From: an uncultured delta proteobacterium
GTDB lineage: Bacteria > Desulfobacterota > RBG-13-43-22
Assembly: GCA_963843145.1 (NCBI GenBank)
Contig: CAWJJC010000012.1
Span: 96,001 to 160,000 of the forward strand
Direction of reading: 5' to 3'
Length of the DNA stretch: 64,000 nucleotides
The position numbers were made by a program, and so were the translations under genes. How positions within the stretch are numbered: the first letter of the stretch is position 1; each line of letters opens with the position of its first letter. Shown here piece by piece: positions 16,150-21,800 of the stretch. The notes beneath the pieces are model-generated. The model made no database searches. It was not told the DNA's origin and saw nothing but the letters and a program-made list of their open reading frames with translations.

Positions 16150-16512
16150 TTAACCTATTTCCTTGATCCGTTCAATTTTGGCCCCCAGAGCGGAGAGCTT
16201 CTTCTCCAGGGTCTCATAGCCCCGATCCAGGTGATAGACCCGGGAGATTTCCGTGACCCCCTCGGCCCGTAAACCCGCCAGAACCAGGGAGGCGCTGGCC
16301 CGCAGGTCGGTGGCCATGACCGGCGCCCCGTTCAGGCGGGAGACGCCCTTGACCACCGCCTGGTGGCCGGAAACCTGTATGTCGGCGCCCATCCTTTGCA
16401 GTTCACTCACGTGCATGAATCGATTTTCAAAAATCGTTTCCTGGATGATGCTGGTATCCTGGCTGACGCACATGAGGGCCATGAACTGGGCCTGCATGTC
16501 GGTGGGGAAACC
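16150..16512 (-). pseudogene. murA: Duplicated 3' fragment of murA (GFPTD to stop)
   Basis: 363 bp aligning to 20538-20900, with 14 substitutions counted by eye, 2 of them non-synonymous. Confidence 0.95.
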
Positions 16513-16601
16513 ACATCTTGAATCGGGGTCCGACCCCGGCGCAGGCACCTCGATCGTCCATGGGTTGCCTGTGCCCCGGCAAGTGAGTACAGCCCTGCTT
16601 G

Positions 16602-18127
16602 TCAGTGCGATATCTTGGCTTTTATTCGTGCAGTCATCAGCGGTAGGAACAGCGGATGCCCCGGCAGCACCAAAGACAGATTGTCGGCATAGCCGTCGTT
16701 GTAGCCCACGCTCCAGATCATGCGCAAGTCGACTTGCGATCTGGCGTGCGCCGGCGGGGATGAGGGCGGTGGCGCTGCGATGCACGAAGCCGGTCAGGCC
16801 GCCGCGATCCGCAGCCGTGACCGGGCCAATTGTCAGCGGGCTGCCAACAATTGACACCGTGCCGTCGAGAAAGGTGACCGTCACGGTGGCGACGTCCGCC
16901 TGCGCCTGAAAGCCCCCCAGGTCGGCGGAGAGGATGTAGGGAACCCCTCCCGCGTCGATGGCGGCACTGGCCGGCGAGATATCGACAAACTGCGTTACAA
17001 CCGTGTCGGTCAGATCCCCGCCGGCGAAGAAGTTGTAGCCGTGATTCGTGGGCACGGTGTCGGTCAGCACGGAAGGAAATCCACCCGGAGCGTTATAAGG
17101 TACGGCCGTGAAGTGTCCGTTCGAGACCAGCAGCCAGCCAGGCACGCCGACGAATTTGCCGCCAGACGAGGCCCCGCCCTCTTCGGCATCGCCGTTGCGA
17201 AGAAGGTTGCGACCGTAGGCGAACAGCGGTTGCACGCCTTCATAAGCGCCGATATCGCATAGACCATTCACCGGCCGCGTCACGCCGCGCTGGTCGGGAT
17301 GCGGGGCGGTGGCGGTTGAGTCGAGGCACTGGTTTGAGGGAATCTGGTCGAGCGCCGGACTGCCGGTTAGCAGCGCGCGAGTCGGTGTCGCGCCGCCGTT
17401 GTTCTGTAACGGCCCCAGCAGGGCATCGCCGCCGGAGATATCGTGCGCCAGCGGGTTTGGGAGGCAGGCCAGATTGGACTGGATGTAGTTGTAGTCGTGC
17501 GAGGTAATCGGGTTGCCGACGCAGTCGTCAGCGAGAATGCCGGCGTGGTTTTCGGCCAGCAGGGAATTCGATATTCCGATCGTCAAACCGGTCCGATTGG
17601 CAATGCCGCCTCCCTGCCCGGCACCGGTGGCGAGGGCATCGGCGAGATTACCGGCAATCGTCAGATGAAACAGGCGGGCCGATGTTCCACCGTGATAGAG
17701 GCCGCCGCCATAGGCCCCCGCTGTGTTGGCGCTCAGGGTGCTATCGTTCATGATCAGGACACCCAGGTTGATGATGCCACCCCCAGAACCGGGAGTTGAG
17801 TTGTGGCTCAGCGTGCTGTTGTTGACCGTCATGGCGCTCCGGTTAGAGAGGCCCGCGCCAGCGCCCGAAGCCGTATTGCCGTCGATCGTGCTGCGATTGA
17901 GCGTCGCCGCCGGCAAAGCGATTGGCATTCATGATCGCGGCCCGCAGGGTACAGGTGCTGTTGCCGGGATTGGTGCGGCAGATGGTGAAGGTGGGATCAC
18001 CGGTGAAGTCGGCCGGCGCGTCGCCCAAACTGTTGACGGTGAAGGTCGGTGCGGCGGCAGCCACATCAATGGCTAACATCAGTAGTGCCACGGCCATGAA
18101 CACTGTGGGGAAGCTCTTGTTTAACAT
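16602..18127 (-). pseudogene. Frameshifted CSLREA / choice-of-anchor Q beta-helix surface protein
   Basis: Signal peptide, [32 protein letters not shown]; a C-terminal LFLPLM motif is reached only after a frameshift. Confidence 0.75.
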
Positions 18128-18203
18128 GCGGGCCACCTGTCTCCTGCCAGATCAACCATTCCTCAAGCAGGCCTCAAGTCAAATTCTGCCGACTTCTTCA
18201 TTA

Positions 18204-18226
18204 GCCGAGAATTTTGTATTCTCGGC
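18204..18226 (-). terminator. Hairpin between the two cargo genes
   Basis: GCCGAGAA-ttttgta-TTCTCGGC just after the stop at 18228. Confidence 0.45.
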
Positions 18227-20095: not shown

Positions 20096-20377
20096 GAGTC
20101 CCCCGGTTGGCAAATGCCATAGCCCTCGTCACGGTAAGCGACGGGCGGGCACCTGCGGGTGATTGTGAGCTGCATGTGGATTGGATTCGGGGCCAGCGGG
20201 GCTATGAGTATCTCCCGTCCTTGGCCTATTATACAATTTAGGTTCATTCGAAAGGTAAGTCAATCAGAGAGATGAAATAAGGAAGCTCAGCCGCGTGAAG
20301 CCACCCGGTTTTACAACCGGTAATCCTTCCCCGGGATAACCGGCTTCAGACCTTTTTCAGGCATGATGCCCCTCCAT

Positions 20378-20535
20378 TAGGTGACGGCTGTTACTCCCCG
20401 GGCGTCGGAAATCGACAGCAGGTTTCGGTGGTCGTCATGGGTGTAATCCACCCTGGAGCCGTCTGGGAATTTTTCCCCGGTGGTCAATTCCGGGTCGTTC
20501 AACGTTAACTGACGGCCTGGCCGTGCCGGTTAGCC
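20378..20535 (-). pseudogene. Rhs/YD-repeat remnant
   Basis: Minus-strand frame reads KFPDGSRVDYTHDDHRNLLSISDARGVT, preceded by degraded NRHGQAVS*. Confidence 0.55.
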
Positions 20536-20537
20536 GC

Positions 20538-21800
20538 TCAACCTGTTTCCTTGATCCGTTCAATTTTGGCCCCCAGGGCGGAGAGCTTCTTCTCCAGAGT
20601 TTCATAGCCCCGGTCCAGGTGATAGACCCGGGAGATTTCCGTGATCCCCTCGGCCCGTAAACCCGCCAGAACCAGGGAGGCGCTGGCCCGCAGGTCGGTG
20701 GCCATGACCGGTGCCCCGTTCAGGCGGGAGACGCCCTTGACCACCGCCTGGTGGCCGGAAACCTGGATGTCGGCACCCATCCTTTGCAGTTCACTCACGT
20801 GCATGAACCGATTTTCGAAAATCGTTTCCTGGATGATGCTGGTATCCTGGCTGACGCACATAAGGGCCATGAACTGGGCCTGCATATCGGTGGGGAAACC
20901 CGGATAGGGGCGGGTGGTCACGGAAACGCTTTTTATTTTCCGGGGGCCGGAAGCCGTCAGTCCCGTCTTGTCTTGAGAAAACTCCACCCCGGTCTCTTTC
21001 AATTTCATGATCAGGGCCTCCAGACAGGAGCCGTCATAATCCGTCAGGGTAATTTCACCGCCGGTTATTCCGGCCGCCACCAGATAAGTTCCGGCTTCGA
21101 TGCGGTCGGGCATAACCCGGTAAGTGGCGGGATGCAGGGAAGGGACTCCTTCGACGGTGATGATATCCGTCCCGGCTCCCGCGATTTGGGCCCCCATTCC
21201 TTTCAAAAAATTGGCCAGGTCCACTACTTCCGGTTCCTTAGCGGCATTGGCCAGAGTGGTTTTCCCCTTAGCCAGGGTCGCCGCCATCATCAGGTTTTCC
21301 GTCCCGGTGACGGTCGGCAGGTCAAAGACGATTTCAGCGCCTTTCAACTGGCGGGCCTTGGCCTCGACGTACCCGTGTTTCAGTTCCAGGCGGGCCCCCA
21401 TCTGCTCCAGGCCTTTCAGGTGCAGATTGATGGGACGGGCGCCAATGGCGCATCCGCCCGGCAGGGACACCCGGGCTTTGCCCAGCCGGGCCACCAGCGG
21501 TCCCAGGACCAGGATTGAGGCCCGCATGGTTTTGACCAGATCATAGGGGGCTTCCCAGCCTTTCACCTGGGAGGTATCTAAATGCAGTTCGCTGGACGAA
21601 ACCTCTTCACATGAGACCCCCAGCCAGGAAAGCAATTTTTTGTGGGTGCGGATATCCCGCAGGGTGGGCAGGTTAGTCAGGGTTGAAATCCCTTCGGTTA
21701 ACAGGGCGGCGGCCATGATCGGCAAGGCCGCATTTTTTGCCCCGGAAAGGGAAACTTTTCCCTTTAAAGTCCGACCGCCGTGAATTAGAATCTTATCCAT
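20538..21800 (-). CDS. murA: UDP-N-acetylglucosamine 1-carboxyvinyltransferase
   Basis: [31 protein letters not shown] and HLDRGY motifs. Confidence 0.98.

Follow-up and report, generated by a model that had tools for sequence, protein, structure and literature searches.

Phage 21 integrates at icd in Escherichia coli and supplies the gene with a substitute end. The same gene extends into prophage e14, at whose other end lies the pseudogene icdC (according to a passage in PMC13626634). In E. coli K-12, the icd tail and icdC match over 165 bp, in which 12 bases spread over 11 codons differ (9 synonymous changes and 2 replacements; 92.7% identity), with no identity upstream and identity over 1 base after the stop codon. 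Here, we describe a comparable arrangement at murA in an uncultured delta proteobacterium (GTDB lineage Bacteria; Desulfobacterota; RBG-13-43-22). The DNA analyzed, hereafter the window, is a 64-kb stretch (positions 96,001 to 160,000 of contig CAWJJC010000012.1, assembly GCA_963843145.1); coordinates are positions in the window, and the genes of the repeat and of the insert under study read on its minus strand. The 3' end of murA occurs there twice, on either side of a 4-kb insert, and the arrangement is very probably a real 3'-end displacement, made by recombination, that joined two murA alleles.

Two other kinds of system offer points of comparison. Cis-mobilizable elements (CIMEs) are decayed relics of ICEs (integrative and conjugative elements) or IMEs (integrative and mobilizable elements) that keep both attachment (att) sites and are without recombination or transfer genes, and one tRNA-Lys site surveyed in 303 Streptococcus agalactiae genomes held 215 CIMEs versus 88 ICEs and 66 IMEs (both from portions of PMC7563491). 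In C-terminal displacement at Rhs and contact-dependent inhibition (CDI) loci and in the Vibrio cholerae type VI secretion system (T6SS) arrays ascribed to homology-facilitated illegitimate recombination (HFIR), as at murA, a shared upstream part is followed by a new downstream part, and the former 3' region survives farther downstream as an orphan; no dedicated recombinase is invoked for these systems (as set out in sections of PMC5361080). The kind of event is known from these cases (e14 and phage 21 at icd, CIMEs, and Rhs/T6SS displacement), and the murA instance is unreported as far as literature searches reach: among the papers listed, no title or abstract names murA as an attachment site.

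Two diverged copies of the murA 3' end

The locus is defined by the intact gene, the two repeat copies, and their edges:

20538..21800, minus strand: murA, intact, 420 aa (Pfam EPSP_synthase, 1.4e-113, residues 8-406)
20538..20900, minus strand: repeat copy B, the 3' 120 codons of murA plus TGA
20887..20900, minus strand: 14-bp block GGTTTCCCCACCGA, the 5' edge of homology and a candidate crossover core or microhomology
16150..16512, minus strand: repeat copy A, a displaced, 5'-truncated murA fragment of 120 codons plus TAA
16512..16513, no strand: junction J2 between the insert and the displaced murA fragment, placed by base-by-base comparison

The intact murA closes the gene row rho-DUF1385-prfA-prmC-murA. 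A repeat search returned a direct repeat of 300 nt at 96% with a spacing of 4388; compared base by base, 16150-16512 and 20538-20900 match over 363 bp with 14 differences and zero indels (96.1% identity), and the similarity is cut off sharply at either end. On the coding (minus) strand, the homology opens at GGTTTCCCCACCGA (the G-F-P-T-D codons) and closes at the stop codon. Thirteen of the differences are transitions and 1 is a transversion; by effect, 11 are synonymous third-position changes, 1 is the TAA/TGA difference between the stop codons, and 2 are replacements (V/I and I/T), so that the proteins of copies A and B are identical at 118/120 residues. An earlier first-pass annotation of this DNA had arrived at the same counts by hand (363 bp and 14 differences, nearly all transitions and 12 of them silent including TAA/TGA). 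Searches of the window with tblastn and sensitive blastn detected neither a third murA copy nor any sequence common to the regions past both stops.

By the Nei-Gojobori method, the two copies show 11 synonymous differences over 87.3 sites and 2 nonsynonymous differences over 272.7 sites (dS, 0.138; dN, 0.0074; dN/dS, 0.053; binomial p = 8e-6 versus neutrality). A duplicate decaying freely in place cannot give such a ratio, and the copies therefore come from two lineages: both tails bear the signature of purifying selection and diverged as working murA alleles in separate lineages before they were joined. The first-pass view that both copies evolved as functional alleles, and are no trivial echo, is thereby sustained. 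Substitute ends carried by an element would likewise evolve inside working genes, as the ratio suggests for both of these tails.

Identical runs of 14 to 66 bases are spread along the whole repeat. The 14-bp block at its 5' edge has two exact sites (20887-20900 and 16499-16512), the next best site having 2 mismatches, and is weak alone because the mean distance between differences of the two copies is about 24 bp. Inside the insert, 12-26 nt from junction J2, there is a palindrome, CGGGGTCGGACCCCG.

The MurA protein of the window is 92-97% identical to 26 full-length relatives (P0037-P0062), and the nearest named relative is that of a Desulfobacca sp. metagenome-assembled genome (80%). The stretch at GFPTD in which the break falls is conserved in 35/35 relatives listed, in agreement with its earlier placement in a conserved PG/FPTD region. 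Both window copies have the rare Q of ELQRMG, which 3 of these 35 relatives share, and the V/I site is polymorphic (I in 10/35). The Ile in the C-terminal KEIG of copy A is found in 0/35, where T, S, A, V, or G stands instead, and may be the one change gained after copy A died. The proteins do not distinguish the resident from the incoming copy, given that distances of the N-terminal and C-terminal parts show no contrast and that the V/I site varies among relatives. As a separate observation, one relative that is 96% identical (P0051, 413 aa, encoded on a contig of 70,463 bp) ends in ...KKLSGPGGQN, which is the +1 frame of the normal tail, so that its last 15 codons contain a frameshift.

As with e14 at icd, the inserted DNA lies in the 3' part of a gene for a housekeeping enzyme, a substitute end is supplied, and the old end remains as a direct-repeat pseudogene; in both, the differences between the ends are almost all synonymous and the homology ends at the stop codon. 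The murA repeat is the longer and more similar of the two (363 bp at 96.1% versus 165 bp at 92.7%). The inserts themselves differ: e14 is 15.2 kb long with annotated intE, xisE, and phage genes, whereas the murA insert measures 4.0 kb and has no recombinase or phage gene.

Contents of the insert

The insert occupies 16513-20537 (4025 bp), bounded by the 363-bp direct repeat, and holds the following:

20380..20529, minus strand: RHS/YD-repeat gene remnant, a 50-codon open stretch (Pfam RHS_repeat, E = 1.1e-4)
18231..19978, minus strand: gene 1, encoding a secreted parallel beta-helix (Chlam_PMP/POMP repeat; Pfam Chlam_PMP), broken as sequenced
16605..18139, minus strand: gene 2, encoding a choice-of-anchor Q/CSLREA-type secreted beta-helix (NCBIfam choice_anch_Q, 5.4e-22), broken as sequenced
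16150..17928, minus strand: chimeric open reading frame (ORF) of 592 aa, passing through gene 2 in a wrong frame and on into the murA fragment

The RHS remnant, which begins 8 nt past the murA stop, is a single repeat that scores 22.9 bits versus a cutoff of 22; in PDB, it matches Rhs-family proteins weakly (E, 2.5e-4 to 4e-3). The closest homologues of the insert genes show 81-86% amino acid identity. In a frameshift-aware alignment with a 552-aa homologue (P0277), gene 1 is identical at 445/550 residues and contains six frame changes (near 19848, 19700, 19501, 18492, 18476, and 18396), together with a TAG codon at 19601-19603 where P0277 has Leu. Gene 2, set against a 652-aa homologue (P0157), is without residues ~85-222, changes frame near 17890-17930, and has a +1 shift near 16737, with 361/434 residues identical elsewhere. 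This +1 shift accounts for the 592-aa ORF; the true C terminus of gene 2 lies in another frame than that ORF and stops at ~16605, and the ORF is, judged from the reading frames, a frameshift by-product and no gene. The source record contains a 560-aa version of it (P0156), which scores as an EPSP_synthase-domain protein and is an annotation artifact.

With two broken genes and an RHS scrap, the insert as sequenced is not working cargo. Its first description as foreign DNA is not shown by composition: GC content at third codon positions (GC3) is 0.73-0.75 in the insert genes, compared with 0.63 ± 0.07 in other genes and 0.68-0.77 in murA, and the difference is thus mild.

All disruptive lesions found in the 64-kb window fall in the insert, and no gene checked outside it is broken. 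In bacteria, indels that arise spontaneously are for the most part deletions or short-repeat slippage, and untemplated insertions are typical of an under-polished long-read consensus; here, 5 of the 8 small indels are untemplated single-base insertions outside homopolymers (near 19700, 19501, 18492, 18476, and 16737). Genes 1 and 2 may be truly dead, or the insert may have poorer read support than its flanks. Poorer support, if that is the case, would suggest that some members of the population lack the insert. Both the TAG codon in gene 1 and the loss of 139 codons from gene 2 argue for at least some real decay.

Beta-helix homologues of these genes (P0157, P0159, P0160, P0163, P0168, P0277, P0336, and P0398) share a C-terminal tail, (Y/F/H)LP(L/F)xx(R/K/Q), which is present in every beta-helix homologue listed and has window counterparts at 16605-16700 and 18231-18260 (minus strand). 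This tail may be a sorting or anchoring signal of the CSLREA/choice-of-anchor Q group. A second PMP-repeat beta-helix gene, with an intact ORF, is located at 58212-59351 (minus strand) and is followed by a Big_12/Big_13 Ig-like gene at 57040-58215; its product is ~32-34% identical to the gene 2 homologues, and its GC3 is 0.62 versus 0.73-0.75 in the insert.

The interval between murA and comEC

Beyond copy A, the window continues to comEC through the following features:

15886..16065, plus strand: hicA (Pfam HicA_toxin, 3.6e-8)
15665..15889, plus strand: hicB (Pfam HicB_lk_antitox, 1.3e-3; UPF0150, 7e-5)
15255..15353, minus strand: 33-codon open stretch (MLNIPPELLTRYVAFLEKRAVPPSHYNDYQK), candidate start of a tyrosine-integrase gene (ESM Atlas feature search)
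13812..15089, plus strand: CPA2-type cation/proton antiporter gene (Pfam Na_H_Exchanger, 1.5e-55; NCBIfam 2a37)
11130..13691, minus strand: comEC, intact, 853 aa (Pfam DUF4131, Competence, and Lactamase_B)

The order from murA to comEC is insert, copy A, hicBA, ~570 bp without a recognizable gene, and the antiporter gene. The hicBA toxin-antitoxin pair converges on the murA fragment, and the source records of proteins in the same clusters use the names HicA and HicB. We compared this interval with a set of at least 80 murA loci from other species (56-65% identity). Among the 80 loci listed, comEC follows murA in 15, on the same strand and within 0.5 kb in 12/12 of the cases shown, and no counterpart of the antiporter gene is present. 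In the window, comEC is 6.8 kb from murA, and mixed material thus fills a joint that is ancestrally tight, which points to a site hit more than once. The distance from the duplication to comEC, first given as 2.6 kb, measures 2.46 kb, and the suggestion that this nearness is a special pointer was not borne out, comEC being an ancestral murA neighbor in 15/80 loci. In two related contigs (P0005 and P0006), the last 263 ComEC residues form a separate ORF with the same start codon, so that sister strains may have a comEC that is split or truncated at a single position.

The 33-codon ORF falls inside the ~570-bp stretch, beside hicBA. Each of its ten best named ESM Atlas clusters is a phage-integrase N-terminal SAM-like domain (the best of them scoring 0.91 on 109 features in common), which makes it a weak lead to the start of a lost tyrosine-integrase gene; it has no counterpart in the 80 murA loci listed.

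Other candidate signals in the interval were rejected. A GC-rich near-palindrome, the 12-mer GGGTCCGACCCC, stands at 15209-15220 and, in the opposite orientation, at 16525-16537, and the pair brackets the murA fragment, hicBA, and the integrase-like stump. As element ends (15209 and 16526), these sites are at chance level: as many as 3 matches occur in 5/100 shuffles, and a single palindrome accounts for two of the three observed. A tRNA or other RNA target was likewise discarded, the one tRNA-Gly lying far off at 36095 and no noteworthy Rfam match occurring in 10000-24000. A scan for promoters and terminators gave counts near the shuffle expectation.

Origin of the insertion

The architecture supports a gene-restoring insertion: the target is intact, the repeat runs from a sharp 5' edge exactly to the stop codon, and a 5'-truncated fragment has been displaced. 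A DNA block carrying its own last 120 murA codons would have recombined with the chromosomal murA at the G-F-P-T-D codons; the essential gene would have been kept whole, with a host 5' part and an incoming 3' part (copy B), and the resident 3' part (copy A) would have been pushed 4.4 kb downstream as a dead fragment. Position points to copy B as the element-borne copy. Our favored reading, to which we give slightly less than an even chance, is a CIME-like relic, now without an integrase, of an element that integrated site-specifically at the GFPTD codons. A tyrosine-recombinase element may have targeted the conserved murA stretch and supplied the substitute gene end, and internal deletion and decay would then have left an att-flanked relic without an integrase. 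hicBA and the possible integrase start beyond copy A could be the stump of an older element at the same site, which would imply a tandem history.

Two features of an integrative element are present, namely, a regenerated target gene (a 420-aa murA with a full-length Pfam match) and bounding direct repeats derived from that gene (363 bp around 4025 bp), and the break within a conserved murA stretch, with a 14-bp identical block at its edge, also speaks for this origin, as does, weakly, the 33-codon integrase-like ORF beside hicBA. An integrase gene is lacking in the insert and is not required of a CIME; the insert is compatible with a site-specific origin because att-flanked relics without an integrase are common. 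Like a CIME, the locus has an att-like direct repeat flanking a short integrase-less block at the 3' end of a conserved gene, as well as possible tandem accretion with a decayed unit (hicBA plus the integrase-like stump). The repeats around CIMEs are usually tens of base pairs long, unlike the 363 bp at murA, and CIMEs are defined by descent from an ICE or IME family and by mobilization by a relative, whereas no such relative, relaxase remnant, or partner was seen for the murA insert.

A number of results weigh against a site-specific origin. Of the 97 stop-to-stop ORFs of at least 35 aa in 15090-20537, none has a recombinase, transposase, excisionase, relaxase, or phage domain, and 0/62 ORFs scanned in the rest of the window belong to a recombinase, transposase, or phage family. 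The first-pass statement that there is no integrase accordingly stands for these 97 ORFs and may have to be qualified for the 33-codon ORF ~800 bp beyond the fragment, itself a weak lead from one feature-based method: 4-10% of shuffled proteins reach its ESM Atlas score, a third of shuffled proteins draw ten hits from one clan, Pfam and NCBIfam give no integrase support, and homology searches return a best E of 2 among plasmids and no match among phages (tblastn) and an unrelated protein at E = 1.9 in PDB. Since it lies outside the present insert, this ORF presupposes an older element, yet the window has no third murA copy that could be the fragment displaced by it. In the cargo (an RHS scrap and two adhesin-like genes), no component is typical of mobile elements; given 96% identity overall, the 14-bp identity lacks significance; and the very close alleles with their shared rare ELQRMG Q fit chromosomal exchange between sister strains at least as well. 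Finally, a second murA tail was found in 0/80 of the listed loci from other species, although these are no more than 56-65% identical and closer genomes may lie beyond those listed.

Close relatives give a more equivocal picture. We searched with the 120 residues of copy A against proteins of 66-210 aa, taking at least 84% identity to copy A as the mark of a close relative. Five of the seven close-relative fragments listed start at Met 6, 11, or 14 after GFPTD (115, 110, 110, 110, and 107 aa), a suggestive pile-up that is nevertheless confounded, fragment lengths clustering at start codons because ~114/120 fragments listed begin with M or V; in addition, short fragments from distant relatives drop out of sight when matches are ranked by score. 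The other two are longer (181 and 189 aa), and the clusters include two further post-GFPTD murA fragments (115 and 88 aa). Three of these fragments are on contigs of 120,250, 106,932, and 41,118 bp; the 120,250-bp size is also listed for a comEC fragment, and no full-length MurA is listed with it. Possibly, displaced murA tails are common in the clade, or else assemblies tend to break at GFPTD, and either reading of the fragments would point to structural polymorphism there.

Both mechanisms that the first-pass annotation had named, an integrative element and HFIR, stay live candidates. A recombinase-free origin, the main rival and the somewhat less likely of the two, would have brought in chromosomal DNA of a sister strain, either by HFIR or by Campbell-type insertion of a self-joined fragment. 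Under HFIR, the homologous end would lie in murA/prmC if the insert was incoming and in comEC/antiporter gene if the copy A-hicBA side was incoming, the other end being joined illegitimately at the GFPTD codons and the donor being a strain with different genes past murA; homology would stop at the stop codon because the strains differ from there on. The sequence on either side fits both polarities, with a normal murA-prmC-prfA order on the copy B side and a run to comEC on the copy A side. The lack of a recombinase in or near the insert, a cargo resembling ordinary, already decayed chromosomal genes, and a topology that would need one homologous and one illegitimate join all favor HFIR, as do close alleles (dS, 0.138) with a shared rare residue, which are expected between sister strains. 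The window has an intact comEC with three domains and radA; pilus genes, comEA, dprA, and recA were not seen in it. The same model has been proposed for orphaned Rhs 3' regions standing in strings as well as for T6SS effector-immunity arrays, although the same sections report HFIR to be orders of magnitude rarer than homologous recombination (PMC5361080). Moreover, HFIR predicts neither a break in a conserved motif nor the same-start murA tails in 85-97% relatives, if these are real. The likeness to the Rhs and T6SS cases has its limits too: there, the displaced ends differ in function (toxin and immunity types) and displacement is considered to be under selection, whereas the murA ends are near-identical in protein (118/120) and the duplication itself therefore brings nothing new, and the insert has no more than a single repeat as its RHS scrap.

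That the arrangement is an assembly artifact, with two strains stitched together or a few poor long reads making the insert, is quite unlikely. In favor of an artifact, the contig (256,621 bp) is without a close genome in the species collection, the disruptive lesions of the window are confined to the insert, related assemblies seem to break near GFPTD, and, in our judgment, the untemplated +1 insertions resemble an under-polished long-read consensus with lower read support over the insert. Strain collapse, however, joins sequences where they are identical, and J2 joins the gene 2 flank to the middle of murA, which share nothing; since, in addition, both junctions are consistent and lead back to one locus with orientation unchanged, as a real insertion gives, a chimera becomes improbable. 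The longest identical run in the repeat (66 bp) is also too short to confuse a large-k or long-read assembly, and a TAG nonsense codon and a 139-codon deletion are untypical of indel errors. Least credible of all is a tandem duplication of the murA end in situ, followed by divergence and by insertion between the copies. The direct orientation of the repeat is the sole point in its favor; a dead copy should gain mostly replacements, and with 11 synonymous changes versus 2 and no indels in 363 bp, the dN/dS of 0.053 (p = 8e-6) contradicts it.

The favored reading of a decayed gene-restoring element can be carried further, to a version that we consider unlikely. In it, the GFPTD stretch would be a dedicated, repeatedly used attachment site in this Desulfobacca-related clade, where cassettes with substitute murA ends pile up between murA and comEC, those without an integrase riding on that of a relative or moving on RecA alone. 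Irrespective of how the insertion arose, RecA should be able to loop the insert out through the 363-bp repeats as a 4.4-kb circle, leaving one hybrid, functional murA; in the RecA-alone form of this proposal, cassettes would leave as such circles and reenter any murA allele. If it were true, murA, beside the gene for a DNA uptake channel, would be a safe site for exchangeable surface-protein and toxin-antitoxin cargo.

Whatever its mechanism, the locus shows the textbook footprint that a gene-restoring insertion leaves, here in a gene essential for peptidoglycan and in a sulfate-reducer lineage that is uncultured. It has consequences for annotation: a chimeric protein of 560 aa that includes a murA domain but corresponds to no gene stands in the public record, and where such genomes give a second murA match, this should not be taken for a paralogue. 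If the site proves recurrent, it would be a marker for small integrase-less islands that integrase-based island finders miss and a natural test of how far plain homologous recombination moves cargo; if not, it would be a single ordinary recombination scar.

Other features of the window

Two loci away from murA merit description. A 446-aa ORF at 1084-2424 (plus strand) combines a Response_reg receiver (residues 9-118) with a full LpxC deacetylase domain (residues 162-438) and would be a committed-step enzyme of lipid A under direct phosphorelay control. A MazF/PemK-like toxin ORF at 54636-54962 (plus strand; Pfam, 2.4e-13) adjoins a 101-aa ORF belonging to no family at 54286-54591 (minus strand); together with hicBA, this pair brings the toxin-antitoxin-like loci of the window to two.

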